Positions 1,592-35,662 of a stretch of 39,496 nucleotides of DNA are shown piece after piece (position 1 is the stretch's first letter; each line of letters begins with the position of its first letter). The notes beneath the pieces were generated by a model that searched no databases, was not told the origin of the DNA, and worked only from the letters and a program-made list of their open reading frames with translations. Source of the stretch: Escherichia phage ZH4; the sequence record OM355495.1, one strand, 5' to 3'. The position numbers were made by a program, and so were the translations under genes.

Positions 1592-1614
1592 GTTTCCTAT
1601 AGTGATAGTTTAGT
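1592..1614 (-). promoter_or_regulatory. Phage RNAP promoter (phi17-like), minus sense CTAAACTATCACTATAGGAAA, predicted +1 near 1597
   Basis: Match to the 11-copy phage promoter family in this window; sits just upstream of the gene 17 start and overlaps the gp16 stop. Confidence 0.8.
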
Positions 1615-4600
1615 CCTTGATGTGGATACCTTGCTCCTCAAACGTTCCCAGTAGCAACTTCTGGGTAATCGGGTCGTTCGGAACCAGTTCACGGAACGTA
1701 TTATACATCCCGGTCATGTAGTCACGCTCGTTGACACGAGTATCGGACTTGAGGTAGCCAGCCAAGTTGTAAGCCGAAGCGCCAACGTTAGCAGCATATC
1801 CGAAAGCTGGAACCTGCTCCAAGAAGTTACCAACAATATTCATCACAGGGTCACTTGTAGCCGCACCATACGCGATGGCACGTTCAGGCTTCTCTGTAGG
1901 CGAACGAGGTAGGATAGACGAACGGAGCAGCTTAGTGTCCTCGTACCCAGCGATACCACCCAGAATGTTAGCTACCCCAAGTGGTCCACCGAGATGTGAA
2001 CTACGTGATAGAGCCGCATATCCAATCATCGTCGGGTCCAGAGCTTGCTTGAGGTAGTCACGGTCTCGACCATCCTGCATAGCGTAGGCCTTGACATGCG
2101 CCTGAGCCATGTAGTAGATGCCAGCAAGACCCATAGAGATCACAGTTGACAGAGCAGCGTCCATCGCTCGGTTGTTCTTCGTGGCGTTATAGAAGGTTCG
2201 CATGGTACGTCCATTGATAGACTTGATGACGAAGTTCTTAAACTGGAGGACAGTCTTAGCGAGAGGACCGTAAGCCTTGGCGTCCATGTTTGACAGCTTA
2301 TGAGGCCGGAGTAACGTTTCGTCAGCGATGGTGTCACCCATACGCCACAAGTCCATAGCCCTTGGGTCCTGACTGAACGCCTTCTTATCCTTGATCGTGT
2401 ACTTCCCGTCTGGACCACGCGTCACTGACTCACGGATTAGGGACTTAATACCCTTCCACTGCTCGTCAGAGATACCAGCGGTCTTCAGCCAGCGGTCATC
2501 GAACTTACGCTTACTGCCAGTCAGACTATGCTCCACGATGTCAGACAGGAAGCCTTGACGCCCAGCATCTAACAGGTAGTTTGTCGTACCGTTGAGGACT
2601 TTAGTGAACGGAGAGCGTACTGCAAGTTCACCAGTGTAATACTTGGCAGAGCCTAAAGCCGTAGCCGTAGGTTTACTCAGGGAGCTGTAAGCTCGGAGGC
2701 GGTCTATAACATCCTGTTTAGACGGACGGATTGAGTCATCCAGTTCCTTACCGAAGATAACATTGTGCAGGTCCTTAATCTCTGAGGCCCCGACCTTCTT
2801 GTTACGGAAGGCTAGGTCACGGAAAATCGGGACTCCATGTAGCAGTGCACGAACGTTACCACGAGCCAGCATACCACCAATCTCCGTTAAGTTCTGAACA
2901 CCCATGTAGGCATTCTTAGCGAAGAACGATAGGTCTGTCATTGTGCGCATAACTGTAGCGAAGGCTGCATCGTCAGCACCATCACGTCGAGCACGACCAG
3001 TGAGAATTTTCAAGGTGTCACGTAAGGTAGATACCTCACCTTTCAACTTGCCGTCATCACCAGCCTTGTTCATCATGGTCTCAACCAAATCCTTCATGTC
3101 CTTCGTTGTCTTGCCTGTACCAGCCATGATAGCAATGTCACCATTAACTCGACGGTTGTAGGCCGGGACAATCTTGTCCATGTCCCACTCACGTAGACTA
3201 TTTACGCTGAAAGCCTTACCATTAGGCAGGATTATTTCCATGTCGTTATCGAACAGGTTGCGAGCCTCAAGGAAGTTATTGTTCTCCAGACCGACCAGAC
3301 CGTTGATGTTTTCTTCCATTACGGATGAACGCTCAAACTGCTCTGTATGGGAGATACCATAAGCCTTATCATTAGCATACTTCTCTACCATATCCATAGT
3401 CACCTCTGGTGCTGCTTGAGATGCGTTACCAGATGTAGTTTCACCAGCAGTAGGGGCCTGATCATCTACAGCAGTCTTCTGCCCTTTGGCAGCTGCCGCA
3501 GCCGCTTCAGCTTCAGTTGTTGCTTTGGTGATTCTGTCTCGGACCTTATCAGCCTGTCCTTTCATGTAGTCGAGACGCTCGGTGTTAATACGGACGTGAG
3601 ACTTCTGGGTCTCAATCATCTGCTTCCGACTCTCAATCTTAACAGGAATGGTCTTGCTCTTAGGCTTAGCAGCTAGCTTTTCTTCCAACTCCTTCAGCTT
3701 AGCTTCATGAGAAGCCAGTCGGTCCTTGGAGTTCTGGAGTTTCTTTTCACGGTCTGCAACTCGCTTCTCAGCGTTGGTAAGTACGTCTTTGAGCTCAGCT
3801 ACCTTATCAATTGCCTGTGTAGCAGCATCGTCCAGTTTCATCTGGTCACGGGCTGTGTTTACAGAAGAACGAGGATTTGGTGCAGTACCCACAGTCTTAC
3901 CTGCTGCTGGTTGAGATGACCGTAACTGCTCTGCTAACATCTCGTCCACTCGCGCCTTGACTTCAGGTCTTGACGCATAGCTTGTCAGCCATGACTTCTT
4001 GATTGCCTCCTGTAATGCCTCTGGGCTTCCAAGCTCCTTGATATAAAGCTGCTTCATCTGAGAACTATAGACTACAGGAACGTAGGTCCCCTTGAATCTA
4101 CTACCCGGAAAGATAGACTGAGCGTCTGTACGGCCAAACATCGCTGGGTTCTCCATCATCTCGCGCTTTGCATCAAACTGGTTCTTCAGCAGGTCATAGA
4201 CTTTCAGTTCCCCCGGAGTAAGTTCAGTCTTCAGGTTTCCGCTACCATCTTCAATCGCCAAAGCTACGCGCTTATAAACATCCTCACGCAGAGCTGAGTT
4301 ATCTCGCCAGAATGCTGTCTGGAAGTATGGGTCCTTGAGCGCCTCAGTAACCGCATCGTCGATGTCGTTGTAGAACCGATGGTCCACAGCACGAAGTCTC
4401 TCGAATACGTCTGACGCAGTGGTCCCGATTTTACCTGAGGCCCCTGACTGCATACCAGTCGGTGAACGCACTAAGTCAGCAGCGACTCCACGAATCTCAG
4501 GGTTCTCAGACCGAAGCAGCTTCAGGCCAATCTCAGTCAGGCCGCCAAGGTTAACACCAGCAGCGGCACGTTCAGGCTCAATCACTTCGTCAAAGACCTG

Positions 4601-5998
4601 ACGTGTCCTAGGATTCAGAGGGTTCTCACCAATCAGGATTGAACCATCTTCGAGTCGTACACTACCCGGCTCGTTCGGAACGTCAGCGAACCTAACTCCT
4701 TGATGACTAAAGGTCTGCTCACCTTCCTGAATAGGGAGACGAGACAGGTCCTGACCGTCAACGTTACGGGCTGTCTCGCGAGCTTCCAGACGTGTAGCTG
4801 GACCAGCGAACTCGTTAGTGTTACGACCTAAGGCTCTGCCTAAGCCATCAGCGATAGCAGTCATACCACCACCGAAGAGAGCACCACCAAGGATAGCTTC
4901 AGCCACATGAGCGTCACCACCAGCCACTGAGGTACGGGCCATCTCAGACACACCAGCCAGTGCTCCAGTTTGAGCAGCCACGGTGAACATCTTGTTTACC
5001 AGCTTACCCCCTTTACCAACCTGTCCAGCGATAGGAACGTAGGTCAGAGGGTCTACACCAGCACCAATCACACCAGCAGCTAACTGGGCACCAGTCCCAG
5101 CCTTGGCCTTCTCTTGGTCCAACTTCTGGTTCTCAAGAGCCAAGTTAATAAGCTCGGTCAGGTTCTGAGGAGACCCGCCAGTAAGGACCCCATAATACTG
5201 AGGCAGAACCCCAGCGTTACGAATCTGGTCCAGCTCCTCGCGAGTCCACTTATGGTTGTTCCATCTGGTAGGGTTAAACACATCGCCAATGACATCCAGT
5301 GAGTCCTCGGTCTGACCAGCGCGGATAGCCACGCCGACCATAGAGTTCTTCACTTCAGCTTCTGTAGCCGAACCGAAACCGAACCATGTAGAGCGGTCCT
5401 CTCGTTCCTGCATGGTATCGCCGGTAGCCTTATAGAACATCTCACCGAACGATTCGTTGGGAGCTTCAGGTGCTTGACCCTCAATATTCAGACCAGCAGC
5501 GGTCGGAAGGTTCTCACCCAGAGCTACTTTAGGTTTAGCCTTGAGTCCTTCCGTGAGTGCGTCAAATACGTTAGCGCTTACTGGTGGAGTCTTTGGGCTA
5601 ATGCCATTGAGTGCTCGTGCGACTCCCTTCTGATAGACTTCAGGGTCGTACCGGGAGCCTGTCTCATGGAAGCTGATAGCTTGAGCCAGAGAAGACAGGG
5701 TGTCAGGGTCCGAAAGGTCGAGACTCTGGGTAGCTGGAATACCAGTTGCAGCCACCACTGAGTCAATATAAGCCTTAGTGTCGTTCTCGTTAGGAGGCGC
5801 CCATCGGTTGATAATCTTCTCGATGGAGTCATAGCCTTGGCGACCGTAACTTAATAAGTTCTTACCCAAGGCCCGCACACCAGACTCTGGGCTATCAAAT
5901 ATTACAAACTCCCCATCATCGCCAATAGCTCCTTCCCATTGGTCCTTAGACTTACGGATATTTCCGGGGTTCGAATTTCTTATACCACGTGTTGCCAT
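1610..5998 (-). CDS. Internal virion protein D (T7 gp16 homolog), 1462 aa, with non-T7 N-terminal domain
   Basis: Track ORF; central and C-terminal regions align with T7 gp16 (e.g. MENPAMFG...SIFPGSRFKGTYVPVVY, NAYMGVQNLTEIGGM). RBS GGAG upstream of ATG. N-terminus (MATRGIRNSNPGNIR...) does not resemble the T7 SLT domain. Confidence 0.9.
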   Translation of the reverse strand: MATRGIRNSNPGNIRKSKDQWEGAIGDDGEFVIFDSPESGVRALGKNLLSYGRQGYDSIEKIINRWAPPNENDTKAYIDSVVAATGIPATQSLDLSDPDTLSSLAQAISFHETGSRYDPEVYQKGVARALNGISPKTPPVSANVFDALTEGLKAKPKVALGENLPTAAGLNIEGQAPEAPNESFGEMFYKATGDTMQEREDRSTWFGFGSATEAEVKNSMVGVAIRAGQTEDSLDVIGDVFNPTRWNNHKWTREELDQIRNAGVLPQYYGVLTGGSPQNLTELINLALENQKLDQEKAKAGTGAQLAAGVIGAGVDPLTYVPIAGQVGKGGKLVNKMFTVAAQTGALAGVSEMARTSVAGGDAHVAEAILGGALFGGGMTAIADGLGRALGRNTNEFAGPATRLEARETARNVDGQDLSRLPIQEGEQTFSHQGVRFADVPNEPGSVRLEDGSILIGENPLNPRTRQVFDEVIEPERAAAGVNLGGLTEIGLKLLRSENPEIRGVAADLVRSPTGMQSGASGKIGTTASDVFERLRAVDHRFYNDIDDAVTEALKDPYFQTAFWRDNSALREDVYKRVALAIEDGSGNLKTELTPGELKVYDLLKNQFDAKREMMENPAMFGRTDAQSIFPGSRFKGTYVPVVYSSQMKQLYIKELGSPEALQEAIKKSWLTSYASRPEVKARVDEMLAEQLRSSQPAAGKTVGTAPNPRSSVNTARDQMKLDDAATQAIDKVAELKDVLTNAEKRVADREKKLQNSKDRLASHEAKLKELEEKLAAKPKSKTIPVKIESRKQMIETQKSHVRINTERLDYMKGQADKVRDRITKATTEAEAAAAAAKGQKTAVDDQAPTAGETTSGNASQAAPEVTMDMVEKYANDKAYGISHTEQFERSSVMEENINGLVGLENNNFLEARNLFDNDMEIILPNGKAFSVNSLREWDMDKIVPAYNRRVNGDIAIMAGTGKTTKDMKDLVETMMNKAGDDGKLKGEVSTLRDTLKILTGRARRDGADDAAFATVMRTMTDLSFFAKNAYMGVQNLTEIGGMLARGNVRALLHGVPIFRDLAFRNKKVGASEIKDLHNVIFGKELDDSIRPSKQDVIDRLRAYSSLSKPTATALGSAKYYTGELAVRSPFTKVLNGTTNYLLDAGRQGFLSDIVEHSLTGSKRKFDDRWLKTAGISDEQWKGIKSLIRESVTRGPDGKYTIKDKKAFSQDPRAMDLWRMGDTIADETLLRPHKLSNMDAKAYGPLAKTVLQFKNFVIKSINGRTMRTFYNATKNNRAMDAALSTVISMGLAGIYYMAQAHVKAYAMQDGRDRDYLKQALDPTMIGYAALSRSSHLGGPLGVANILGGIAGYEDTKLLRSSILPRSPTEKPERAIAYGAATSDPVMNIVGNFLEQVPAFGYAANVGASAYNLAGYLKSDTRVNERDYMTGMYNTFRELVPNDPITQKLLLGTFEEQGIHIKD

Positions 5999-6429
5999 GT
6001 CTTTCTCCTTAAGATATTTCTAATAGAAACCGTACTCACTCCATAGGAACTAGCTAGGAATGAAACCTTTAGGCCGCTAGACCGTATGTTCTTCACATCA
6101 GTCTCTGTCAATTTGGATACTCCTATTGAGCTTCCAGACGCTTGACGACCTCTTTCCACCTTGTCTTTAATGTTGTCAGCCTGAGTTCCAGCCTCAAGAT
6201 GGTCAGGGTTTATGCAGGACGGATTGTCGCACTTATGGCGTACAACATACCCTTCAGGTATAGGACCACTGGCAAGCTCATAAGCTAGTCGATGTGCTCT
6301 ATACTTAACTCTGTTAATCATTATCGTACCATAACCGTCAGAATCTACGGTCCCAGTGAATCGGATACAGCCAGAGCTTTCAGCTACTGACAATTCTGCC
6401 AGTCTCTCACTGGCTGTCCCGTTCTTCAT
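5980..6429 (-). CDS. HNH homing endonuclease (intact), 149 aa
   Basis: HNH motif VVRHKCDNPSCINPDHLEAG plus a C-terminal DNA-binding-like segment KLTETDVKNIR...STVSIRNILRRKTW; RBS GGAG upstream; inserted between gp15 and gp16. Confidence 0.85.
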   Translation of the reverse strand: MKNGTASERLAELSVAESSGCIRFTGTVDSDGYGTIMINRVKYRAHRLAYELASGPIPEGYVVRHKCDNPSCINPDHLEAGTQADNIKDKVERGRQASGSSIGVSKLTETDVKNIRSSGLKVSFLASSYGVSTVSIRNILRRKTWQHVV

Positions 6430-6433: not shown

Positions 6434-8716
6434 TTACTCCTTACCGATTAGTACGTTTGCGATACCCTCCAATGAGACGTCATTATACATCCCTCCGCGC
6501 TTCTCGATGTTGGCCTCTCGGTCAGCTCGACGTTTATCACCAGCAGCTTTAGTCCCGACGATACGCGCTCGCTTGTTAGCGTCACGTTCTGCCTGAGCGT
6601 ATGCGGCATCTTGTGCCTTCTGCTGTTGTTCGCGGTAGAGTTTGCCTACAAGTTCTTTATCGTAGCGAATACGAATAGTCCCTGTAGCGTCTTGGAGGAA
6701 GATAGAGCCGTTCTGTTCAACAACGGACAACTGAGAGTTCACTACCCAACGGTTGGCCTTAATGAGCTGCTTACGAGCGGTTTCGATAATGTCTCGACCT
6801 ACCTGCCACGACTCTGGGTTATCCCCTACCATAAGCTGGTGCTTTGACACCATGCCGATGGACTTACCGTCAGAGCCTTCAGACTGGAACGTTACGGTAT
6901 TTTCATTCAGCCAGCGTTGAGTCTGCTGAGTTGCAGCGTCAGCGTTACCTGTACGATAGTACCATGAGTCCCAGACCTTACGAGCACTTGCGTCAAGAGA
7001 CGTAGGAAGACGCGAAAGGTCCTTATTCCGAGAGTCGTTCTTCAACTCCTGCCACGCCTTGTCTGACTCCATGCGCATCTCACGGCTTTGACTTGCAGCT
7101 TGCTTATCAGCTTCAATCATCGTCTGAGGGTCCAGACCCATCTTGTCCATCTGGTCGAACGTAGAGAACAGCTGAGCTTGGTCAGGATACAGAGCGGCGA
7201 AACTTGAAGGGTCCTGAGTGTAGGCACGCCGAAGAGACTCGAAGCGTTTCATCTTGTCTGGGTCGTACTGTCCACGGATGACAGCAGCTTGCCACTCACC
7301 AGCAGCGTCCTGAGTCAGCGTCTGGAAGGCATTACGGAACGGACCGTTGTTAGTGTCAGCTCTTAACAATGCCACCTTCTGAGCGTCCTTAGCAGCCTCA
7401 GGGATGTCCATCTGGTCAATCTGCTGTAGCTTGGCAGACGCATAGTTGTTCATGTCCGAACGTTTGAACTCGCCTGTAGCATCTGAGACCGGAAGGTCCT
7501 CATAGTTGGTGGACACGTTGTCACCAGCCAGCCGTCTCTGATACACTTGGTCGATGACCAGTTGCTTGTTCTGGGTCTGGATTAACTTAGTGTTCTCCTT
7601 CGCCTGTTCAGCAGACTTACGCTTGACCGCTTCCAGTAAGCTGGCTTCGGCATTAATAAGCATCTGACGCTGAGGCGTTAGTTCTTCACCAGGCTGAAGC
7701 AGGTTGTTCTGCTCCTTGAGTTTCTGAATCTGGGCAAGACCAATGGTTGGGTCATCCTGAAGAATTGCAGACTGAACGCCTAACGCCAAGTCTTCCTGAT
7801 ACTTAGCCACCAGTTTATACTCAGTACCTTGGGCCTCAACCATAGCAGCATTGAAGACGTCAGGTCCTACAATCTCTTCGATGGTAGCGTCAACACCGTT
7901 AAGGGTGATACGCTCGCCACGGACTTGCTGTAGGAAGTTTGAGCCTCCTGACTTCTGGATTGCGTCACGGACCGTCTGGGTTATGACCTCTCGTGCTCTC
8001 TGGTCCGAAGGTATAGCAGCAGTCGTCAGTCCATCCCGAAGGTAGGCCATGAATGTCTTTCCAGACTCAGGCGAACGCATCAGGTCCCCATCGTTAAGGA
8101 ACGAGTTCATCTCAATGCGAGTGTTCAACATTGCTGTCTCTTCAGACTGCTTGCTGAAATACTTATTGAATGACCCGTATATAGCGATGTTTCGGTCCGT
8201 GATGTTATCGTTGAATCCACGCTGGAAGAACTCGTCTGTAGGGTTAATACCCGCCTCTTCAGCATAGGACTTAGCGGCATCCTGAAGTCGCTGGTGGCGA
8301 TACTCTTCCATGTCCTGACGTGTACGGAACTCACCGTTCTGAATCTTAACGTTAATCTCGTCATCCACCGCAAAGGCAGCGTTACGGCCAGTCTTTACTC
8401 GAAGTGCTTCCATAGCGTAAGGGTCATCCTGATATAGCAGTGTGCCGTTCTGGATAGCCTCACGTCTTTGCTGAGGTGTCAGCTTACGGATAATCTCGTT
8501 AGACCGCTCGTCAGCTCTGGTCTTATCCTCGTCCTTGAACTGCTTGTACAATCCTGTCCCAGACTCAACGAAGTTAGTTAATGCACGAGCCAGCCCGGAG
8601 TCCCCAGTCGGAGCCTGAACGTTGGCTGCTTGATAGTTGACGGTGATAGTTTTACCAGGCGCTCTGCCGCGACCCATAGTCCGATTAGCCAGAGCTGATT
8701 CAATATTACTAGCCAT
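6434..8716 (-). CDS. Internal virion protein C (T7 gp15 homolog), 760 aa
   Basis: Strong similarity to T7 gp15 (ADERSNEIIRKLTPQQRREAIQNGTLLYQDDPYAMEALRVKTGRNAA); RBS AGGAGG. Confidence 0.9.
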   Translation of the reverse strand: MASNIESALANRTMGRGRAPGKTITVNYQAANVQAPTGDSGLARALTNFVESGTGLYKQFKDEDKTRADERSNEIIRKLTPQQRREAIQNGTLLYQDDPYAMEALRVKTGRNAAFAVDDEINVKIQNGEFRTRQDMEEYRHQRLQDAAKSYAEEAGINPTDEFFQRGFNDNITDRNIAIYGSFNKYFSKQSEETAMLNTRIEMNSFLNDGDLMRSPESGKTFMAYLRDGLTTAAIPSDQRAREVITQTVRDAIQKSGGSNFLQQVRGERITLNGVDATIEEIVGPDVFNAAMVEAQGTEYKLVAKYQEDLALGVQSAILQDDPTIGLAQIQKLKEQNNLLQPGEELTPQRQMLINAEASLLEAVKRKSAEQAKENTKLIQTQNKQLVIDQVYQRRLAGDNVSTNYEDLPVSDATGEFKRSDMNNYASAKLQQIDQMDIPEAAKDAQKVALLRADTNNGPFRNAFQTLTQDAAGEWQAAVIRGQYDPDKMKRFESLRRAYTQDPSSFAALYPDQAQLFSTFDQMDKMGLDPQTMIEADKQAASQSREMRMESDKAWQELKNDSRNKDLSRLPTSLDASARKVWDSWYYRTGNADAATQQTQRWLNENTVTFQSEGSDGKSIGMVSKHQLMVGDNPESWQVGRDIIETARKQLIKANRWVVNSQLSVVEQNGSIFLQDATGTIRIRYDKELVGKLYREQQQKAQDAAYAQAERDANKRARIVGTKAAGDKRRADREANIEKRGGMYNDVSLEGIANVLIGKE

Positions 8717-9799: not shown

Positions 9800-9822
9800 A
9801 GTCCCTATAGTGATAGTTAAGG
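9800..9822 (-). promoter_or_regulatory. Phage RNAP promoter (phi13-like), minus sense CCTTAACTATCACTATAGGGAC, +1 near 9805
   Basis: Consensus match in the intergenic region between gene 12 stop (9847) and gene 13 start (9770). Confidence 0.8.
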
Positions 9823-9846: not shown

Positions 9847-12204
9847 TTAGACGGAACGAGCTTTCTTAGCGTATGACGCCTCCCAGCCACACCCAACGAT
9901 TGACACTGGGGTAGGATAGTCGGACTCTAAGGTTAGACTCGTGGTTAATGCGTTACCATTCATAGCGAAGCGATACTGCCCGTCACCAATGTTTGTAGTC
10001 CCGATGGTTTGCTGACCAAGGGTGTACCCATTAAAGGTGTTCACGAACTCCCGCTCACCGTTTCTGACAATTAGTCTCAGAGCACCAGTGTCCTTGTAGT
10101 TGACCCAAGCCCGACGAAGCTGTAGGCGACCAGTGTCTTCGGACTGAGTTCCACTATCATCTTCAATCTTAATCAGGAACCGTGAAAACTTGTAGGACAT
10201 CAGATAAGGCCGCCCGATGAACACTGTGCGTCCTGACCAATCGCCGTTGAGGATAACCACAGAAGAGATACTGGTCAAGTACCCAAGGTCAACATAGGCA
10301 CCCTGACTGTCAATCAGATAGTACCTACCGGGAGACGGAGCGTTGCCACCATAAGCAGCACCAATGTCAACCGTAGTCTTATAGGTGTCAGCATTATATG
10401 AGCCAATTGGAATTACCATAGACACCTTGGAGTCAATGTGTAGTCTATATGGCTCTGACGGGAAGTCAGTTGCCTCCTTGATGAACTTAAGGTGCTCAAG
10501 GTCCACTCCGCCTTGGTGCTGACGAACGATGAACATGGTAGAGCCGATAGAAGCAGACGCCAGAATCTTATCATCTTTAGGGAACTCCCAGTGTGACCAA
10601 GATGCTTGAAGCTGTACGCCATCCTTAAACAAGAACTTATAGATGTAGATTCGGTTGTATGCACCTGTAGAGTTGACGCAGATGTAGTTCTCAGTACCTG
10701 TACCTTGAATATCGAACACCCCGTTAGGGATGTAGGACAGTACGTGACCAGTTGTATCATCGGCATCCTTCACATCAGACACATCGGCTACAGCGAAGTA
10801 TCGCTTAATGCTGGTGAATGACCCCCGAGGAGCTGAGAAGAAGACTGAGCGTCCTACAGCGAACGGTCTGGCATTCTCGCCTAAGGCAAACTCTGAGCCT
10901 ACATCGAGCTGGATAGACTTCGAGGTAAGGATCCCAGAGCTCGTCATCACGAACTGAACCTCATCCGACCAAAGTAGTAGCTGCTCACTAAACGGAACGG
11001 CATACTTAAGGATTGAGATTCGAGGGTGACTTACAGCTACATCAATAGGGTCATCATCACTCAGTGTCGCCACACTCTTAGGGAAGAACGCAAAGTAGCT
11101 TGCTGAACGGCTCATTATTACGTTCTCGCCAGACAAGAACCCAAGTCTGTTCCTGTAGAAGAACACATCATTAATCGCAGCATCCACGAAGCTAGGCATA
11201 GGGTTTGTGTCATCGTTACCAGCACCACGTTTTGACCAATCCAGAGTCTTAAACTCAAAGGATCCATCAGGCTGTCTGACCAGAGCATGTGGCATTGTGG
11301 TGACATCAAAACCAGTGACAACTCCCGGCTCCACTGTCTCCTTCCACGTCTTAGTGTTGGAGTCATACATCACGTAGTATTCATCGGAGCTACTGTTTGT
11401 CTCACCTTGAATCTTAATGATATACCCATTAGGAGCGGCAAGAGGTAGTTTAGAGATTGTCTGCACAGTGTCTAGGACTGGGCTTATTAGCTGGTTAGCG
11501 TATCCATCCTCCGTCTCCACTGAGTTAATATCGGTCCCTGAAGGAGCTGTGATTAGCAGGAAGCCAGACCCAAGGTCAAACGTGAAGTCAGGATAGGCAG
11601 CAACAAGAAGGTCTCTCAGAGCTGAACCAATGGCTTGAGCGTCCACCTTAGGTGGGTCATTCTCGGCATCATTACCTGCTGGTAGCTTATGCGAGACCTT
11701 AACGCCACCGTTGATTCCCACCTTAAGGGTTCGACCATACTGTCCACCACGAAGGTTAATTAAAGCTCGTGATTTGCGGTTATAACCAGAGTGTGACTTC
11801 TCGCTTCCACCTTTGACGACAACCTTACGGTTAACGACGAACGTATAGTCTGCCACGGTAACGACACGGATGTCATCTCGTGGGTTGGAGGACTTAACGT
11901 AGTCTACCACACCAGACACTAAGTATTGCTTACCACTCAAGTCAACTACCTGAATGTTGTACCCGTTGAACACGATGTAATACTGCTCATGCTCGTCACG
12001 GTTAATCAGGTGGAACTTAGGGTTACTCCCAACGTCGATGTTAAGACGTCTCTTGAAGACTGTAGGTGGGCGCTTCTGTAGGCCATCACTCTCGGATGAC
12101 CAGCAGTTAACCTGTGCCTCGCCTTGGTCTGAGAACCTCAGTATGTCAGGCTGCTGGCTAATGCCACCTTTAAGATTTTTGATTGATTGAGTAATTAGTG
12201 GCAT
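9847..12204 (-). CDS. Tail tubular protein B (T7 gp12 homolog), 785 aa
   Basis: N-terminus MPLITQSIKNLKGGISQQPDILRFSDQG... versus T7 MALISQSIKNLKGGISQQPDILRYPDQG; conserved throughout (HLINRDEHEQYY, RLQLRRAWVNY, IVGCGWE). Confidence 0.95.
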   Translation of the reverse strand: MPLITQSIKNLKGGISQQPDILRFSDQGEAQVNCWSSESDGLQKRPPTVFKRRLNIDVGSNPKFHLINRDEHEQYYIVFNGYNIQVVDLSGKQYLVSGVVDYVKSSNPRDDIRVVTVADYTFVVNRKVVVKGGSEKSHSGYNRKSRALINLRGGQYGRTLKVGINGGVKVSHKLPAGNDAENDPPKVDAQAIGSALRDLLVAAYPDFTFDLGSGFLLITAPSGTDINSVETEDGYANQLISPVLDTVQTISKLPLAAPNGYIIKIQGETNSSSDEYYVMYDSNTKTWKETVEPGVVTGFDVTTMPHALVRQPDGSFEFKTLDWSKRGAGNDDTNPMPSFVDAAINDVFFYRNRLGFLSGENVIMSRSASYFAFFPKSVATLSDDDPIDVAVSHPRISILKYAVPFSEQLLLWSDEVQFVMTSSGILTSKSIQLDVGSEFALGENARPFAVGRSVFFSAPRGSFTSIKRYFAVADVSDVKDADDTTGHVLSYIPNGVFDIQGTGTENYICVNSTGAYNRIYIYKFLFKDGVQLQASWSHWEFPKDDKILASASIGSTMFIVRQHQGGVDLEHLKFIKEATDFPSEPYRLHIDSKVSMVIPIGSYNADTYKTTVDIGAAYGGNAPSPGRYYLIDSQGAYVDLGYLTSISSVVILNGDWSGRTVFIGRPYLMSYKFSRFLIKIEDDSGTQSEDTGRLQLRRAWVNYKDTGALRLIVRNGEREFVNTFNGYTLGQQTIGTTNIGDGQYRFAMNGNALTTSLTLESDYPTPVSIVGCGWEASYAKKARSV

Positions 12205-12441: not shown

Positions 12442-13007
12442 TAGTCCCTCCCGATGTCAGACATCATGTTGTAGCGACCAGTGTCCATCTCGTACTCCAT
12501 AACCTGCTGATAGAGTTCTGCTTCCTGCTCACGAAGGTATAGCTCTGACTCTGGGCTACCGAAGAACTTAGCGTTGAACTCTCGGCTAGCTTTAGTGACG
12601 ATGTAGTCCCTGAAGACCACAGGCATCTCGGAGAATGGCTTCATCTCCACAAGCTCTACCGTGATAGGGTCGGTGAAAGTGGTTGACTGAGTGGACAGGT
12701 CGTACAGGTATCCACCCATGTTGCTGTAGTAGCTGGTGGCCCCAGCAGTCATTATCCGAAGGTATGACGGAAGGAATCGAATCCTATTGTCTTGGACATC
12801 AGGTGTCAGGACAGCAGCTTCGTTGATGTTAAAGTTCCAGCCTTTAGCTTGGACCTGACGATTGACACGATGTAGGATACGTTGAGCGTTCGAGACGTCA
12901 GCGTTCCCCTCGTCAAGCTGTAGGACTGCTGGTTCACCGATAGCAGCTAACATATCGTTGATGGCATCTAAGTCATCGTTAGCATTCAGTGGAATGTATT
13001 GAGCCAT
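12441..13007 (-). CDS. Tail tubular protein A (T7 gp11 homolog), 188 aa
   Basis: Similarity to T7 gp11 (AIGEPAV..., NAQRILHRVNRQVQAKGWNFNI, YIVTKASREFN, MEYEMD.G.YNM); RBS AGGAG. Confidence 0.9.
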   Translation of the reverse strand: MAQYIPLNANDDLDAINDMLAAIGEPAVLQLDEGNADVSNAQRILHRVNRQVQAKGWNFNINEAAVLTPDVQDNRIRFLPSYLRIMTAGATSYYSNMGGYLYDLSTQSTTFTDPITVELVEMKPFSEMPVVFRDYIVTKASREFNAKFFGSPESELYLREQEAELYQQVMEYEMDTGRYNMMSDIGRD

Positions 13008-13026
13008 AAGTCTCCTCTCACTTTAA

Positions 13027-13068
13027 GCAAAAAACCCCTCAAGCACCCGAAGGCACCCAAGGGGTTTC
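13027..13068 (-). terminator. T-phi-like intrinsic terminator after gene 10 (minus sense AACCCCTTGGGTGCCTTCGGGTGCTTGAGGGGTTTTTTG)
   Basis: GC-rich hairpin with UUCG loop followed by a U6 run, immediately after the predicted 10B stop; closely resembles T7 T-phi (CCCCTTGGGGCCTCTAAACGGGTCTTGAGGGGTTTTTTG). Confidence 0.85.
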
Positions 13069-14347: not shown

Positions 14348-14370
14348 TCTCCCTATAGTGATAGTTTAGT
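14348..14370 (-). promoter_or_regulatory. Phage RNAP promoter (phi10-like), minus sense CTAAACTATCACTATAGGGAGA, +1 near 14353
   Basis: Perfect consensus copy upstream of the major capsid gene. Confidence 0.85.
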
Positions 14371-15343: not shown

Positions 15344-15366
15344 TGTTCCTATAGTGATAGTTTAGG
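15344..15366 (-). promoter_or_regulatory. Phage RNAP promoter (phi9-like), minus sense CTAAACTATCACTATAGGAAC, +1 near 15349
   Basis: Consensus copy overlapping the portal gene stop, upstream of the scaffold gene. Confidence 0.8.
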
Positions 15367-17196: not shown

Positions 17197-17593
17197 GATT
17201 AATCTCCTTAATTGTTACGATGTCTACCGACCCTGAAACATGCTTGACACGAGAATACCAGCTAAGACCCCAACGCTTGCACTCTTCGTCTATGATGTGC
17301 CTGACAGTCTCAAGAACCTTGCGGGAGGACTGCGAGTCACGACGAATAGCGACGATTGAAAGGTCAATACCGGGAGTCGGTCGGTGCCAAGATGCGGTAG
17401 CCAGCATGTAGAGATACGCTACTGGTTGACCTGATACATCGTAGATTGTGTATTCTTCACCGTCGAACTCGTCAGCCATACGGTAGGTATGAGCCTTGAA
17501 GTCCTCGAATGACTTGAAGTTAGACTGCCCGTCTTCCCAGAGGCGACAAGCGCACATGTGGCGACCTTCGCGTGAGTTGAGATATGGTAGCAT
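17189..17593 (-). CDS. T7 gp7-position protein (virion/host-range protein), 134 aa
   Basis: Track ORF between genes 6.7 and 7.3; assignment is positional, with size similar to T7 gp7. Confidence 0.55.
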   Translation of the reverse strand: MLPYLNSREGRHMCACRLWEDGQSNFKSFEDFKAHTYRMADEFDGEEYTIYDVSGQPVAYLYMLATASWHRPTPGIDLSIVAIRRDSQSSRKVLETVRHIIDEECKRWGLSWYSRVKHVSGSVDIVTIKEINRG

Positions 17594-18109: not shown

Positions 18110-18170
18110 CTTGAATCTCCTCTTTAAGTTAAGACTAAAGTCTATCTTATAGTCATATCTTAGGTCCTAA

Positions 18171-18193
18171 AGTCCCTATAGTGATAGTTTAGT
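18171..18193 (-). promoter_or_regulatory. Phage RNAP promoter (phi6.5-like), minus sense CTAAACTATCACTATAGGGACT, +1 near 18176
   Basis: Consensus copy between exonuclease stop and gene 6.5 start; likely start of late (class III) transcription. Confidence 0.85.
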
Positions 18194-22069: not shown

Positions 22070-22089
22070 GGTTAATCCTCCGTTTAGTC

Positions 22090-22130
22090 TAATCATAAAG
22101 GCCACTCGATGTGAATGACCTTGAGTCTAG
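22090..22130 (-). repeat. Conserved 43-bp element copy 1 (plus sense TAATCATAAAGGCCAC...ATGACCTTGAGTCTA); putative RNase III processing hairpin upstream of gene 5
   Basis: One of three near-identical copies (also 29734..29776, 38021..38064). In RNA sense AAGGUCAU can pair with GUGGCCUU around a loop. Intergenic. Confidence 0.5.
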
Positions 22131-24099: not shown

Positions 24100-24122
24100 A
24101 ATCCCTAAGGTGATAGTTTAGG
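24100..24122 (-). promoter_or_regulatory. Variant phage RNAP promoter upstream of gene 4 (minus sense CTAAACTATCACCTTAGGGAT)
   Basis: Matches the consensus except -3/-2 (CT instead of TA); located between the 71-aa ORF stop and the gene 4 start. Probably weaker. Confidence 0.55.
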
Positions 24123-25191: not shown

Positions 25192-25621
25192 TATAAACAA
25201 CGAGCTCTACTACGACCAGATTCAGATGTGACTGGAAGCGCTGTGCGTCAGTCGTGTGCATCTGGAGCAACTTATGGTTGAAGACGTGTGAGTTGCTGAT
25301 CTTCACGTAAACTTCTTCAGGCTTTCCGTGGACGATGAACGTCTGGCCTACACCAATCTTGTCGATGGTCAGGACTTCACGTTTAACGGTGACAGGAGGG
25401 ACGCTTGAGGCTGGCAGGACTTGTGGTTGACCGTCCTCTTTGATGGTATACAGCTGCTTCTGAAGGCTATTATTAACCCCTTCAAAGTAGGATAGCCCAA
25501 GGGTACACGTTTCACCATTTCCCCAGCGACCTGTGGTTCCATTAGTCTCAAACACTAGAGGGTCACTGACCGTTCCTGTAACTGTTACAGGGAACTTGTA
25601 ACCTTTTGCTTTCTGAGTCAT
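25181..25621 (-). CDS. Hypothetical protein, 146 aa (orphan ORF between endonuclease I and the HNH/lysozyme genes)
   Basis: Track ORF with RBS GGAG and ATGA overlap with the gene 3 stop; Thr/Val/Gly-rich; no T7 counterpart recognised. Confidence 0.6.
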   Translation of the reverse strand: MTQKAKGYKFPVTVTGTVSDPLVFETNGTTGRWGNGETCTLGLSYFEGVNNSLQKQLYTIKEDGQPQVLPASSVPPVTVKREVLTIDKIGVGQTFIVHGKPEEVYVKISNSHVFNHKLLQMHTTDAQRFQSHLNLVVVELVVYNGK

Positions 25622-26811: not shown

Positions 26812-26834
26812 CTGTCCTACAGTGATAGTTTAGG
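26812..26834 (-). promoter_or_regulatory. Variant phage RNAP promoter (phi2.5-like), minus sense CTAAACTATCACTGTAGGACA
   Basis: Consensus with one change at -2 (G for A); overlaps the gp2 stop, upstream of SSB. Confidence 0.65.
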
Positions 26835-28062: not shown

Positions 28063-28085
28063 TTGTCCTATAGTGATAGCTTAGG
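28063..28085 (-). promoter_or_regulatory. Phage RNAP promoter (phi1.5/1.6-like), minus sense CTAAGCTATCACTATAGGACA, +1 near 28068
   Basis: Consensus with a single change in the upstream part; located after the TE-like terminator, before gene 1.6. Confidence 0.75.
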
Positions 28086-28119: not shown

Positions 28120-28157
28120 CAAAGCAAAGAAACCCAGCAGTCCGAAGACCACTGGGT
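28120..28157 (-). terminator. TE-like early intrinsic terminator after the ligase gene (RNA: CCCAGUGGUC-UUCG-GACUGCUGGG then UUUCUUUGCUUU)
   Basis: 10-bp stem (8 Watson-Crick plus 2 G-U) with UUCG tetraloop and a U-rich tail, 10 nt after the ligase stop; T7 has the host-RNAP terminator TE at the same place. Confidence 0.75.
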
Positions 28158-28167
28158 TGACGTTTAG

Positions 28168-29733: not shown

Positions 29734-29776
29734 TTAATCATGAAGGCCACGACTTTGAGTCATGACCTTGAGTCTA
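29734..29776 (-). repeat. Conserved 43-bp element copy 2 (putative RNase III site, R1.1 position) between the phi1.1 promoter and gene 1.1
   Basis: Plus sense TTAATCATGAAGGCCAC...ATGACCTTGAGTCTAA; lies in the 5' leader of the phi1.1 transcript, matching the T7 R1.1 location. Confidence 0.55.
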
Positions 29777-29797
29777 ATCCTATAGTGATAGTTTAGG
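29775..29797 (-). promoter_or_regulatory. Phage RNAP promoter (phi1.1-like), minus sense CTAAACTATCACTATAGGATTAG, +1 near 29780
   Basis: Consensus copy upstream of genes 1.1-1.3. Confidence 0.8.
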
Positions 29798-30085: not shown

Positions 30086-32767
30086 TTAAGCGAATGCAAA
30101 GTCTGAAGACAAGATGTCTTCGATATTCAGTTTACCTTTCTTCGGAAGCTCAGGCAACTTGTCGCGCTGGCTCTCATGAAGCTGGTATTCGAACTGCTCG
30201 TAGAAGTCAAGCAGCACATCGTTGTCGCGGTAGGTCTCAACCATTGTCTCACGGACTCCACGGAACAGATACTCAGCGTCAGCCGGGATGGTCCCGAAGC
30301 TATCGTGAATCACTGCGAATGACATCACACCATACTTGCGGTGCGTGTGGACTACAGTCTTGCGGAGGTGGCTACCATCTTGTGAGTGGACGAAGTTCGG
30401 GCTGATGCCTGACTCCTGCTTGTGCTTGTCCAGCTCTTTCTTCGTGCCTTTGTTGACTGTAGGCTGAAGGTTGAACGACCCTAAGAACATCAGGTTCAGA
30501 CGAGTGGTATCCTTCTTGCGGTATTCCTGCCAGACCGGGAAACCATCAGGTGTGACCCAGTGTACCGGAAGGCAAGGCTTCAGGATTTCTCCAGTCTTCT
30601 TGTCTTTCACTTCAGCAGCCAGCAGCTTGGCAGCACCTTGAAGCCACTTCATCGCGTCAACCGCAGCAACTACGGTCACACTCACAGCTTCCCAAATCAT
30701 CTTAGCCATGAAGCGAGACGCTTGGCTTGGCTCGGTGAACATAGCGCCAGACCCTGAGTCAATCGCTGGCATCACGATGTCTTCGTACACTTGGTCTGCG
30801 AAGCCATACTCTTTCGACCCGTAGGCCAGAGTCATTACTGAACGCTTAGTGACCTTGCGTGACATACCGTAGGTCAGCCACTGACGGGCCAGCTCTCGTG
30901 TCCCCAGCTTGAGACGTTCGGTAATCTCACCAGTTTTCTTGTCCTCGTGAGTTACCATCTCGTTGTCCGTACCGTTAACCAGCATTACTTTAAGCTCCTC
31001 CTCGATGCGATCAGACACGATGCGGTAGATGTCTTGTACCTTCCCGGAAGGCGTCAGGTTTACTGCATGTCCACCGATGTGGTCACGAAGCATCGCGCTG
31101 AAGTGCTGAATCCCAGAGCATGACCCATCGAACGCTATCGGTAGCGAACAAGAGTAAGACAATCCGTGGTGCATTACTCCAGCATACTCGAAGCAGAACG
31201 CAAGGAAGCAGAAAGGAGAGTCTAGCTTGCCCCACCACTCAATGTTATCCATCGGTGCCTTAGCGGTAGCCATGATGTTGTCGTGATTGTCTTCCACCCA
31301 CTTGATGCGCTCCTCGAAGGTGACTTTATCGACGCCAGCACAGTTTGCACCATGGACCTTCAGCCATTTGAAACCATCAGCGCCAATAGGCTTGCCGACT
31401 GCAAGAGTCAGGAGACCCTTCTGCATGTCGTTACCCTGAGGGTTGAACATCGGGACAGCGTAGACACGACCCCGCCAGTCCATGTTGTACGGGAACCAGA
31501 TGGCCTTGAACTGAGAGAACTTGTTCGCTTGGTTAACGATAAAGCTCAGTGACAATCTGCGTGACTGTCTGGCCTTCTCGCGGCGATAGATACCAGCAGC
31601 AGCCTTCTTCCATGCCTTGAGTTCCTCCTCTGTCTCACCCGCATAGTCCTCAGGCTTCAGTGGTTCCATCTGAGGGATGTCGTCAATAGGCGTGTTGTTC
31701 AGCTTCTCGACCATGTTCACCACGTCCAGAACCTTCTTGTTCACTTTCCAAGGTGTATTCTGAATGATGTTCACAGCGTCATAGACTTCAGGCATGTACA
31801 CGTCTTCGTAACGTGCTACCGCAGACTTAGACCCTAAGCGAATCAATGGTAACGGTCTGCGACCTTTGGCCCAGTACCCACCGCCTACGACACCAGTCCA
31901 CGGCTTAGGTGGAACGACGCAAGGTTGATAGACTGGTGCGATACCCGCAAGGCTAAATCCACGTTGTGCCATCTTCTTTACCCAGAAGTCTGACAGGTGG
32001 ACCATCTCAACGTCAGCCGCTGCATTGCCAGCACCATAACGCTTAAGCTCGACCAGTTGAGTAGACTGGATGACAATCTCAAGCATCTTGATGCCAACGT
32101 GTACCGCCTCGGTCGGACTCCAAGTACCCCACGCATCTTCCAGTTGACCTTGCTCCAGCATGGAGGTCTCAACCGCTTGCATGTAGGCTTTCTTATAGGA
32201 TACCCCGGCTCGCTTGTTCAGGTTCTCAGCTATCGCCTTCTTGAAGTGCTCCTGCTCCTTGTCCCGAATGCGACCGAAGCGGATTTCATCTTCGAGTGTA
32301 CGGCCTATCGCTGAGGCCATCGGTGTAATCGGTATCCCTTCAGGCTTTACCAGCTTGGAGAGTATGACCTTCAGTATGATGACCGCAGCAGACTCGCAAG
32401 AGATACGCAGAGAGCGGTCCTTGACGGCCTTCCCTTCAGTGCTCAACATGGTGAACGCTACGCTAGGACGAGAGGTTGACAGCTTCCCGTCTGGGCCTTC
32501 GTGCCACTCCTTGACGGCTTGCGCAATCTTAGGGACCAGAGTCTGCATCAAAGGCTTGGCTACCTGATTGTCTGCCAGTTCTCCGCGCTCAGTCTGTCGC
32601 TCAAGGTTCTTAATGAAACGTCGCTCGCCTTCAGTGTATGCCTCATGCTCGAGCTGAAGTTGTTTTACTGCAAGGTCTTGCCCGTAGTGGTCGGCCAGCA
32701 GGTTAAACGGCTCAATAGCGTTCGACACATCAGAGAAGTCGTGTTTATCGATAGAGATGACGCTCAT
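30086..32767 (-). CDS. Single-subunit DNA-dependent RNA polymerase (T7 gp1 homolog), 893 aa
   Basis: Collinear with T7 RNAP over the whole length (DFSD...PFN.LADHYG, FQPCVVPPKPWTG..GGGYWA.GRRPL, WFPYNMDWRGRVYAV.MFNPQGNDM.KGLLTLA.GKPIG, DGSCSGIQHFSAMLRD, SVMTLAYGSKE.GF, HDSFGTIPADA, C-terminal FAFA). Specificity-loop region reads QPTVNKGTKK where T7 has QPTINTNKDS. Confidence 0.98.
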   Translation of the reverse strand: MSVISIDKHDFSDVSNAIEPFNLLADHYGQDLAVKQLQLEHEAYTEGERRFIKNLERQTERGELADNQVAKPLMQTLVPKIAQAVKEWHEGPDGKLSTSRPSVAFTMLSTEGKAVKDRSLRISCESAAVIILKVILSKLVKPEGIPITPMASAIGRTLEDEIRFGRIRDKEQEHFKKAIAENLNKRAGVSYKKAYMQAVETSMLEQGQLEDAWGTWSPTEAVHVGIKMLEIVIQSTQLVELKRYGAGNAAADVEMVHLSDFWVKKMAQRGFSLAGIAPVYQPCVVPPKPWTGVVGGGYWAKGRRPLPLIRLGSKSAVARYEDVYMPEVYDAVNIIQNTPWKVNKKVLDVVNMVEKLNNTPIDDIPQMEPLKPEDYAGETEEELKAWKKAAAGIYRREKARQSRRLSLSFIVNQANKFSQFKAIWFPYNMDWRGRVYAVPMFNPQGNDMQKGLLTLAVGKPIGADGFKWLKVHGANCAGVDKVTFEERIKWVEDNHDNIMATAKAPMDNIEWWGKLDSPFCFLAFCFEYAGVMHHGLSYSCSLPIAFDGSCSGIQHFSAMLRDHIGGHAVNLTPSGKVQDIYRIVSDRIEEELKVMLVNGTDNEMVTHEDKKTGEITERLKLGTRELARQWLTYGMSRKVTKRSVMTLAYGSKEYGFADQVYEDIVMPAIDSGSGAMFTEPSQASRFMAKMIWEAVSVTVVAAVDAMKWLQGAAKLLAAEVKDKKTGEILKPCLPVHWVTPDGFPVWQEYRKKDTTRLNLMFLGSFNLQPTVNKGTKKELDKHKQESGISPNFVHSQDGSHLRKTVVHTHRKYGVMSFAVIHDSFGTIPADAEYLFRGVRETMVETYRDNDVLLDFYEQFEYQLHESQRDKLPELPKKGKLNIEDILSSDFAFA

Positions 32768-32836: not shown

Positions 32837-32859
32837 GAGTCCTATAGTGATAGTTAAGT
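32837..32859 (-). promoter_or_regulatory. Phage RNAP promoter directly upstream of the RNAP gene (minus sense CTTAACTATCACTATAGGACTC, +1 near 32842)
   Basis: Near-perfect consensus copy about 75 nt upstream of the gene 1 ATG; the leader contains tandem AAGUGAAAGAC repeats and an AAGGA RBS. Confidence 0.7.
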
Positions 32860-33496: not shown

Positions 33497-33646
33497 TCAC
33501 TCAGTGTGCGAACTGTCGTACATGCTATTGCGGACCTCATAGACCACTTTCAAGAGACGCATAGCCGCATCGTGGTTTAACTGCCCAGTCTTGACCATAA
33601 TCCGGGCGTAGGTGACGTGGTGCTGGCAGAGACCATAAGTTACCAT
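33497..33646 (-). CDS. Small ORF, 49 aa, translationally coupled to Ocr (TAATG overlap)
   Basis: Own translation [49 protein letters not shown]; no RBS evaluated; low confidence. Confidence 0.3.
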   Translation of the reverse strand: MVTYGLCQHHVTYARIMVKTGQLNHDAAMRLLKVVYEVRNSMYDSSHTE

Positions 33647-34152
33647 TACTCGCAGTCCTCGTCAGCCGCAGGGTCGAACACTACGTTATCGTCGATGTCT
33701 TCGACTTTCAGGTGGCGACCTATCACATAGTGATCCTTGGCACATGCAGTAGCGACCTCAAGAGACACAGCTTGCTCAATGAGTACACCTGTCTTAGCGT
33801 CGACTACCCAATACTCATCCTCCTCGTCGCTCTCTTCAGCCTCAAACCATACCACATCCGAGCTATTAGACACGTCGTTATAAAGCGCCTCATAGATGCG
33901 AGCTTGCAGTATACGCGTTACGTCCTTGGTCTCAGGCATCAGCCCAGAGTCCTCAAACTCATGGTCTATACCATCAGCAGCCATCACCGTAAAAATCTCG
34001 TGGTAATAGTGCGGAACCTGACCGTCTACGACTTCATGCAGCGCATCGTGGTAGTCATCGCTTTCAGCTATTTCGTCGTACTGAATACGCTCGTTAAATG
34101 CTTTAACGGTTGCGGCCAGCAGCTCATAGTATGCGTTAGCGTTACGTTCCAT
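33646..34152 (-). CDS. ocr: Ocr-like DNA-mimic anti-restriction protein (T7 gp0.3 homolog) with a C-terminal extension, 168 aa
   Basis: [66 protein letters not shown] matches T7 Ocr ([66 protein letters not shown]). First gene after the host promoters. About 50 extra C-terminal residues beyond the acidic tail. Confidence 0.9.
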
Positions 34153-34494: not shown

Positions 34495-34530
34495 TGGTAC
34501 ATATTACTTTAAGTCGGTACATCTTGTCAA
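34495..34530 (-). promoter_or_regulatory. Host sigma70-type early promoter: -35 TTGACA, 18-nt spacer, -10 TAATAT, followed by GTACCAC
   Basis: Minus sense TTGACAagatgtaccgacttaaagTAATATgtaccacg, about 350 nt upstream of the Ocr gene; near-consensus hexamers. Confidence 0.7.
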
Positions 34531-34779: not shown

Positions 34780-35270
34780 ATTAACTGTAGGTCTCTGACT
34801 GTAGGTAATGGCTTTACCGACGGTCTGTGACTGTAGGTTGTTGGACTGTAGGTTGTTGGACTTATGGTTATACAGATAAAGACTCGGAGACAGACCAATA
34901 GTCCCAACCTATCGTCTCCACCTCCACCGATAGTCATGACCTATCGTTGACAAAAGGTATTGACAGCCGGTCCAACCTTATGATATACTGAAGGTAGGGC
35001 CACCCTTGGTCTGGACTGAAAGAGGGCCTGCGGGGGAGACTTGAGGTTCTTGAACTATGAGATGTGGTCTCAAACTTTTGGTCCAAAACTCATCGTCACT
35101 ACTGCAGTCCACAGCCACTGTAGGTCAAGGACCGTAGGTCAGGCGACACTAGGATAGACCAATAAGTAGGATGACCCTAAGTGAGCTTCTATTAAGGTGT
35201 TACCTAAAGTCCTTGACTACAGTAGCTAAGGTCAGTAGAGTAGCGTCAGCTATGAACTGACCTTAGGTCT
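34780..35270. repeat. Repeat-rich non-coding region containing the predicted physical genome ends and collapsed terminal repeat (ACCTACAG / GACCTTAGGTC-type short repeats)
   Basis: No credible ORFs. Multiple CTGTAGGT/CCGTAGGT copies and GACCTTAAGTC-like palindromes. Lies between gene 19.5 (right end) and the early promoters (left end), analogous to the T7 terminal-repeat-proximal CCTAAAG arrays. Confidence 0.5.
34947..34990 (+). promoter_or_regulatory. Sigma70-like promoter on the opposite (plus) strand: tandem TTGACA boxes, 18-nt spacer, -10 TATACT
   Basis: Plus sense cgTTGACAaaaggtatTGACAgccggtccaaccttatgaTATACTg, inside the terminal region and pointing away from the early genes. No downstream ORF. 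Confidence 0.4.
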
Positions 35271-35458: not shown

Positions 35459-35639
35459 ATGCTACATACCTCCTGTATCTATGGTCGGTGACTATCTGTA
35501 TTGGAGGGATTATGATTAATATCACCCTCCTTCCATCGGTGCAAGCCTTAGGTAAGAACTCGGAGTCTGCCTCCTAAGGTCTTGCATAAAGTCTGCATAT
35601 GTATATTCACTACAGTAATACTATAAGTAACCGGGGGGT

Positions 35640-35662
35640 CTTCCCTATAGTGATAGTTAAGT
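35640..35662 (-). promoter_or_regulatory. Phage RNAP promoter (phiOR-like) downstream of terminase, minus sense CTTAACTATCACTATAGGGAAGA, +1 near 35645
   Basis: Consensus copy about 95 nt after the large terminase stop, preceding the 19.5-like ORF and the genome end region. Confidence 0.8.

Follow-up and report, generated by a model that had tools for sequence, protein, structure and literature searches.

We analyzed the genome of Escherichia phage ZH4 (sequence record OM355495.1), taking as the window the whole stretch of 39,496 nucleotides (nt), with a focus on eleven short repeats and on the product of gene 1, a single-subunit RNA polymerase (RNAP). Megablast searches gave approximately 93% to 95% identity between ZH4 and many Kayfunavirus (K1F-like) records. 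Compared with phage K1F (NC_007456, locus L001), ZH4 showed approximately 94% nucleotide identity overall and full synteny, except for a few cassettes. We are highly confident that the record represents a Kayfunavirus (K1F-like, T7-group) genome that was reverse-complemented and circularly permuted by assembly, and that the eleven repeats are 23-bp promoters (positions -17 to +6) for the phage's own gene 1 RNAP (30086-32767).

The left and right ends of K1F map to ZH4 positions 35062 and 34880, respectively, so that the genome physically ends at 34880-35062, where assembly has collapsed a direct terminal repeat of approximately 183 bp. Bases 1-127 of the record are identical to bases 39370-39496, leaving a unique length of 39369; this identity of the record ends is a circular overlap left by the assembler. 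Because the overlap lies inside gene 17, the open reading frame (ORF) of that gene is nowhere listed intact. The permuted and reverse-complemented form of the record also explains why the "right-end" promoter lies in the middle of the record and why gene 17 is split over the record ends. The Kayfunavirus clade is well sampled: RNAPs with 90% or more identity to ZH4 gp1 are encoded in approximately 206 phage records, and IMG/VR holds many contigs of approximately 40 kb with multiple copies of the promoter core 15-mer.

An eleven-member promoter family

We searched the window for the 19-mer TAAACTATCACTATAGGGA, allowing up to three mismatches and using dinucleotide-preserving shuffles as background. 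The search returned eleven matches, every one on the minus (gene-sense) strand, against 0.00 expected from the shuffles; their lower coordinates are 1594, 9802, 14350, 15346, 18173, 24102, 26814, 28065, 29777, 32839, and 35642. Only two of the eleven (14350 and 18173) carry the exact 19-mer, and the other nine have one to three mismatches, mostly at -14, +3, and +4 (numbering follows the T7 convention, with 23-mers spanning -17 to +6). We then built a position weight matrix (PWM) from the eleven sites and scanned both strands, taking the record as circular. The eleven sites scored 30.7 to 37.3 bits (24.9 to 36.0 bits when each site was left out of its own matrix), the next best position scored 14.7 bits, and the one after that scored 6.6 bits. 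Given the gap between 30.7 and 14.7 bits, the family has exactly eleven members; the circular scan of both strands gave no further promoter above 14.7 bits and no equivalent of phiOL, phi1.3, or the phi4.x promoters. A preliminary description of this DNA, made from the sequence alone, had listed eleven minus-sense sites whose 23-mer starts agree exactly with ours, and the PWM scan that it had proposed as a check bore the list out.

Positions -16, -15, -13, -11 to -5, and -2 to +2 are invariant in all eleven sites. The segment from -12 to -8 reads ACTAT in ten sites and GCTAT in one, so that the contrast drawn in the preliminary description between ACTA in ZH4 and CGAC in T7 at -12 to -9 holds, with GCTA at a single site. 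Its further claim that -8 to +3 match T7 is true of the consensus but not of each site: +3 is G in five sites and A in six, and two sites are changed at -4/-3. Farther upstream, -17 to -14 read (A/C)CT(A/T) in ZH4 and TAAT in T7, making the whole segment from -17 to -13 (A/C)CT(A/T)A in ZH4. The 23-mers are 98% identical to those of K1F, compared with 91% to 92% for the 80-nt flanks, and 97% identical to those of the Kayfunavirus Ro45lw, compared with 79% to 83% for the flanks. The greater likeness of the 23-mers indicates that the promoter sites are conserved beyond their surroundings.

Nine of the eleven sites are intergenic. In the eight of these whose downstream gene was measured, +1 lies 33 to 108 nt before that gene; the right-end site has no nearby gene. 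The remaining two overlap the stop codons that end genes 8 and 16, the very arrangement that phi9 and phi17 have in T7 (where gene 8 ends at 21850 and phi9 has its +1 at 21865). The T7 counterparts of the ZH4 sites are phi1.1, 1.6, 2.5, 3.8/4, 6.5, 9, 10, 13, 17, and OR. The site upstream of gene 1 has no T7 counterpart, since T7 has only an E. coli promoter (C) there. The T7-like placement upstream of genes given in the preliminary description therefore stands, but its ten gene labels for eleven sites left the site at 32837-32859, before gene 1, unlisted. A small gene 1.1-like ORF begins approximately 85 nt past the phi1.1 site; we had considered the 267 nt downstream of this site as a non-coding origin region and rejected this candidate because the segment holds that ORF.

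The sites before genes 1, 1.1, 1.6, and 2.5 start with GGA(C/T), the gene 4 site starts with GGGA, and those before genes 2.5 and 4 deviate within the core. By analogy with T7, the sites before genes 1, 1.1, 1.6, and 2.5 would resemble class II promoters, with the gene 4 site placed among them by position, and the near-consensus sites at genes 6.5, 9, 10, 13, and 17 and at the right end would resemble class III promoters.

Table 1. Promoters, polymerase features, and terminators of phage ZH4, with positions in the window and counterparts in related phages
Feature	Coordinates	Strand	Sequence	Remarks
phiOR equivalent	35640..35662	-	ACTTAACTATCACTATAGGGAAG	+1 at 35645; ~95 nt past gene 19 (terminase large subunit) and ~580 nt before the collapsed terminal repeat; K1F 38852-38874, 20/23 identical; position as T7 phiOR
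Gene 1 upstream promoter (class II-like)	32837..32859	-	ACTTAACTATCACTATAGGACTC	+1 at 32842, 75 nt before the RNAP ATG; K1F 2474-2496, 23/23; Ro45lw 2400-2422, 21/23
Gene 1, single-subunit RNAP	30086..32767	-		893 amino acids; RNA_pol (5.3e-107) and RPOL_N domains of Pfam; aligns over its whole length with T7 RNAP structures
AT-rich recognition loop equivalent	32459..32491	-		ZH4 residues 93-103, DGKLSTSRPSV; T7 93-101, KAKRGKRPT
Specificity loop	30428..30523	-	YRKKDTTRLNLMFLGSFNLQPTVNKGTKKELD	ZH4 residues 749-780, equivalent to T7 739-770; T7 reads YKKPIQTRLNLMFLGQFRLQPTINTNKDSEID
phi1.1 equivalent	29775..29797	-	CCTAAACTATCACTATAGGATTA	+1 at 29780, past gene 1 and a small ORF; 23/23 in K1F and Ro45lw; annotated promoter in the Ro45lw record
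TE-like intrinsic terminator	28121..28158	-		12-bp stem with a UUCG loop (28158-28131) and a U-rich tail; immediately follows the ligase gene; folding -23.1 kcal/mol, z -4.1
phi1.6	28063..28085	-	CCTAAGCTATCACTATAGGACAA	+1 at 28068, 33 nt before gene 1.6, just past the TE-like terminator; 23/23 in K1F and Ro45lw; annotated "phi1.6" in Ro45lw
phi2.5	26812..26834	-	CCTAAACTATCACTGTAGGACAG	+1 at 26817, 46 nt before gene 2.5 (SSB); 23/23 in K1F and Ro45lw; annotated "phi2.5" in Ro45lw
Gene 4 promoter	24100..24122	-	CCTAAACTATCACCTTAGGGATT	Lowest-scoring site (30.7 bits); +1 at 24105, 56 nt ahead of the primase/helicase start; K1F 10866-10888, 21/23
phi6.5 (class III-like)	18171..18193	-	ACTAAACTATCACTATAGGGACT	+1 at 18176, 67 nt before gene 6.5; 23/23 in K1F and Ro45lw; annotated "phi6.5" in Ro45lw
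phi9	15344..15366	-	CCTAAACTATCACTATAGGAACA	+1 at 15349; overlaps the last gene 8 codons, before gene 9; like T7 phi9
phi10	14348..14370	-	ACTAAACTATCACTATAGGGAGA	+1 at 14353, 108 nt ahead of gene 10 (major capsid protein); 23/23 in K1F and Ro45lw; annotated promoter in Ro45lw
Tphi-like terminator	13025..13068	-		17-bp stem with a UUCG loop, followed by U6; between genes 10 and 11; terminator annotated there in Ro45lw
phi13	9800..9822	-	CCTTAACTATCACTATAGGGACT	+1 at 9805, 35 nt before gene 13; K1F 25321-25343, 23/23
phi17	1592..1614	-	ACTAAACTATCACTATAGGAAAC	+1 at 1597, ahead of the gene 17 start (1544); site overlaps the gene 16 end; annotated "phi17" in Ro45lw; arrangement as T7 phi17

The repeats might instead be a signal of another kind, for packaging, recombination, or RNA processing. 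Their core from -8 to +2, TCACTATAGG, is nevertheless common to the experimentally defined T7 promoters, they lie at gene boundaries where T7 also has its promoters, and the same sequence drives transcription by a purified RNAP that is 94% identical to that of ZH4 (PMC12272871). We consider a non-promoter role exceedingly improbable.

The polymerase and its base contacts

ZH4 gp1 is identical to K1F gp1 at 882 of 893 residues with no gaps, and residues 601-893, the specificity loop included, are all identical. The match to Ro45lw gp1 is 841 of 893 residues (94%), and to T7 RNAP it is approximately 63%. In T7 RNAP, the residues that form hydrogen bonds with promoter bases are R746, N748, R756, and Q758 (PMC11880802). 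The equivalent residues in ZH4 are R756, N758, N766, and Q768, so that only T7 R756 is replaced, by asparagine; Ro45lw has the same R/N/N/Q set. The ZH4 loop also differs from that of T7 by Q754S, beside R756N, and by I761V farther on.

These differences can be set against the promoter bases. C-7 and T-8, which are read in T7 by R746 and Q758, are kept in ZH4, C is replaced by A at -9, and -12 to -10 are also changed. Retention of R746 and Q758 together with replacement of R756 by asparagine fits a promoter in which C-7 and T-8 are unchanged and -12 to -9 are altered. The specificity of the ZH4 enzyme thus probably differs from that of T7 mainly because the equivalent of T7 R756 is asparagine (N766), with serine at 754 and valine at 761, if the residues act in ZH4 as they do in T7. 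In the T7 structure, the AT-rich recognition loop reads -17 to -13, and the change at -17 to -14 in ZH4 goes with a rewritten AT-rich recognition loop in its polymerase.

The preliminary description had pointed to a different stretch of the loop, QPTVNKGTKK in ZH4 and QPTINTNKDS in T7. Our alignment confirmed both strings, yet they cover T7 residues 758-767, on the descending arm and at the tip of the hairpin and beyond the contact residues, and within them only I761V belongs to the published K1F graft; the stretch does not hold up as the determinant of base recognition. Of the altered recognition at -11 to -8 that it had proposed, a changed block remains, at -12 to -9; -8 is unaltered, and the change at -17 to -14 and the AT-rich loop had been missed.

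ZH4 carries the K1F promoter-polymerase pair

The K1F promoters were reportedly first described by Scholl and Merril with the K1F genome (J Bacteriol, 2005). K1F has the same eleven promoters at orthologous positions (11/11), nine of them identical over all 23 bases, as well as the same gene order and the same TE and Tphi positions as ZH4. The phiOR and gene 4 promoters differ between the two phages by two or three bases outside the recognition block; the other differences from K1F (the tailspike, the insertion in gp16, the additional ORF located between genes 15 and 16, and a gene 5 that lacks the HNH insert) are unrelated to promoters. The sequence features of the K1F-type pair were found in ZH4: an orthologous gp1, N/N/Q at T7 positions 748/756/758, serine at 754, valine at 761, and ACTAT at -12 to -8 in ten of the eleven sites.

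This pair has been studied experimentally. Temme et al. (2012) gave T7 RNAP the specificity loop of K1F and swapped promoter positions -12 to -7 for the K1F consensus; the resulting T7 RNAP(K1F loop) gave 17-fold induction on its predicted promoter and was orthogonal to T7, T3, and N4-type promoters (PMC3458549). The pair was reused by Segall-Shapiro et al. in 2014 (PMC4299498). Zhu et al. (2025) listed the K1F graft as 754S, 756N, and 761V with the cognate element ACTAT (PMC11880802, Table 2) and counted K1F among nine specificity clusters that they named (PMC11880802). The chimera and its promoter, PK1F, thus share their loop residues and ACTAT with ZH4, but the chimera has a T7 backbone and its promoter has T7 bases at -17 to -13, whereas the native ZH4 enzyme has another AT-rich loop. 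Takatsuki et al. (2025) purified the RNAP of Kayfunavirus Ro45lw, defined the minimal promoter ACTTAACTATCACTATAGGGA, and mapped +1 to G by sequencing (PMC12272871). This minimal promoter is the same sequence as the ZH4 sites of the right-end and gene 13 type. The Ro45lw loop differs from that of ZH4 at two non-contact positions (M to L and T to S), and Ro45lw has an additional promoter before gene 5 (12445-12467) where ZH4 has none. The GenBank record of Ro45lw annotates phi1.6, phi2.5, phi6.5, phi17, and others at orthologous places.

We also compared the ZH4 sites with the promoters of other T7-group phages, using a T7 matrix built from 17 annotated T7 promoters. Under this matrix, the ZH4 sites scored -3.7 to -24.4 bits, and the T7 sites scored -3.1 to -17.2 bits under the ZH4 matrix. 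No T7-type site was found in ZH4, where the best T7-matrix score anywhere was 4.6 bits. At its best match in ZH4, the T7 consensus has 8 mismatches out of 23, that of T3 has 5, and those of SP6 and K11 have 7 each. Matrix scores and mismatch counts agree with the statement in the preliminary description that the specificity region is unlike those of T7, T3, and SP6.

ZH4 has the hallmarks of the T7 group (Studiervirinae): a 23-bp element, a -8 to +2 core, units in gene sense, and a Pfam RNA_pol polymerase. With T7 itself it shares the 23-bp promoter with that core, the boundaries at 1.1, 1.6, 2.5, 6.5, 9, 10, 13, 17, and OR, the terminators TE and Tphi, and the conserved residues R746, N748, and Q758. 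T7 differs at -17 to -14 and -12 to -9, in the loop (R756N and Q754S), and in the AT-rich loop. A T7 promoter proper (TAATA at -17 to -13 and CGAC at -12 to -9) is not what ZH4 carries, as fixed differences occur at -16, -15, -12, -11, -10, and -9. T7 has 17 promoters and ZH4 eleven; ZH4 is without phiOL, phi1.3, phi1.5, phi4c, phi4.3, and phi4.7 but has an extra one before gene 1.

Of the classic consensus sequences, that of T3 is the closest, with its five mismatches falling against ZH4 phi10, and it has A-12 and C-11 in common with ZH4. T3 pairs ACCC at -12 to -9, with CC at -10/-9, with aspartate at 748; ZH4 pairs ACTA with asparagine, keeping 748 and changing 756. The T3-type switch is N748D (PMC3458549). 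The SP6 and K11 blocks did not fit the ZH4 sites either, in line with their mismatch counts. We used GGTGA and GGGCA as the recognition blocks of SP6 and K11, respectively.

Could the differences from T7 promoters be functionally neutral, with the ZH4 RNAP using T7 promoters about equally well? The core from -8 to +2 and three of the four base-contact residues are common to both phages, and Zhu et al. found non-cognate pairs of the Temme set still relatively active (PMC11880802). Temme et al., however, call every RNAP of their set highly orthogonal, T7(K1F) included (PMC3458549). In ZH4, moreover, -12 to -9 are the same in ten of eleven sites and never T7-like, the best T7-matrix score stays at 4.6 bits, and R756, which contacts -9 in T7, is replaced. 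Neutrality is therefore very improbable in our judgment.

The opposite possibility, which the preliminary description implied, is that the pair forms a T7-group specificity class not described before. It could appeal to sites that are so clearly unlike the T7, T3, SP6, and K11 consensus sequences. It is already refuted by K1F, which has the same promoters in the same places, a 99% identical RNAP, and an identical loop. K1F is also a named cluster, with ACTAT as the cognate of its graft (PMC11880802), and a Kayfunavirus RNAP has been purified and tested on this promoter (PMC12272871). We give a new class virtually no chance. The ZH4 promoter-RNAP pair is the K1F (Kayfunavirus) pair, already known and not new; the preliminary description was right in calling it distinct from T7, and that distinctness is the one K1F already has. 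ZH4 has little discovery value in this respect, being one more Kayfunavirus genome with the same eleven promoters, of a pair that served as an orthogonal transcription part in 2012-2014, became a survey cluster in 2025, and had a purified Kayfunavirus enzyme tested in 2025. The practical value lies in annotation, as the map of eleven promoters, TE, and Tphi is transferable with high confidence.

In the mode of action that we propose, host RNAP would transcribe the early region, gene 1 included, by analogy with T7. The phage RNAP would then bind its promoters as duplex DNA, from -17 to -5, through two loops: the specificity-loop hairpin would read the major groove at approximately -12 to -7, and the N-terminal AT-rich loop would read -17 to -13. 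The enzyme would melt the TATA segment (-4 to +2) and initiate at G +1, and the TE-like and Tphi-like terminators would bound the transcription units. The sites, their non-random occurrence, their positions and conservation, and the RNAP with its loop were computed for ZH4. That the promoters are used, where transcription starts, and that the pair is orthogonal to T7 come from published experiments on near-identical proteins, whereas the timing classes and the part played by individual residues in the ZH4 enzyme are inferred.

Some points weigh against this interpretation. Initiation at the ZH4 sites is presumed from published experiments on relatives. The division into class II-like and class III-like sites is drawn from sequence, as an analogy with T7. 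N748 is kept although -11 and -10 differ from T7, and a simple one-residue swap does not account for these two positions.

Terminators, promoter layout, and other genes

Scans of ZH4 with sigma-70 and terminator consensus sequences gave counts not above those in shuffled sequences. We therefore kept, after folding, only the two terminators at T7-equivalent positions: the TE-like and Tphi-like hairpins occupy the positions of T7 TE and Tphi. The K1F TE lies at 7128-7161 (PMC4099482), and its position matches that of the ZH4 TE-like hairpin. A sigma-70-like element (TTGACA-18-TAATAT, 34501-34530, minus strand) lies in the early region upstream of an ocr-like gene (33646-34152) and is a candidate early host promoter.

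The position scoring 14.7 bits in the PWM scan is a degenerate promoter-like 23-mer, CCTAAGATATGACTATAAGATAG (18142-18164, minus strand), in the phi6.5 leader, 29 nt downstream of the promoter. K1F has the identical 23-mer at 17206-17228, and the Ro45lw version (16804-16826) differs at two positions. With G at -7 and A at +2, the element probably does not act as a promoter.

What is new may be the promoter layout rather than the specificity, although we regard this as tentative and on balance unlikely. Kayfunaviruses have a class II-like promoter 75 nt upstream of the RNAP gene and no phiOL equivalent; if this promoter is active, the RNAP would boost its own production once the host polymerase has been shut off, and the 18142-18164 element might also be a site of polymerase binding or pausing. 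If so, the gene 1 upstream promoter would give an early-to-middle switch logic unlike that of T7, with possible positive autoregulation of the RNAP. In the papers that we read, we found no functional test of the gene 1 upstream promoter or of the 18142-18164 element.

Several other genes differ from those of K1F. Gene 5 (19898-22105), encoding DNA polymerase, is uninterrupted in ZH4, whereas K1F and Ro45lw have an HNH homing endonuclease insert of approximately 600 bp at the equivalent of approximately 20053-20055. The product of gene 16 (1610-5998) has 1462 amino acids, compared with 1295 in K1F, an insertion of approximately 167 amino acids; approximately 550 nt at 3389-3941 are without a K1F counterpart. 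An extra ORF of 149 amino acids (5980-6429, minus strand) lies between genes 15 and 16; it does not occur in K1F, and Ro45lw has an ORF of the same size at the same position.

Gene 17 encodes 751 amino acids on the minus strand, in a segment from 1544 to 1 joined to one from 39369 to 38658, with a T7-type N-terminal adaptor, a Tail_spike_N domain, and a beta-helix. The C-terminal 535 amino acids of gp17 have no K1F match, and this receptor-binding part is not the K1F endosialidase. Within the phage collection, the C-terminal module occurs in no other Kayfunavirus record and matches only the tailspikes of the 158-kb Shigella boydii type 1 phages MK-13 and ChubbyThor (80% amino acid identity) and, weakly, three Vibrio phages. 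These matches suggest that the module has been exchanged between a podovirus and large myoviruses and that the host range is specific for the O-antigen.

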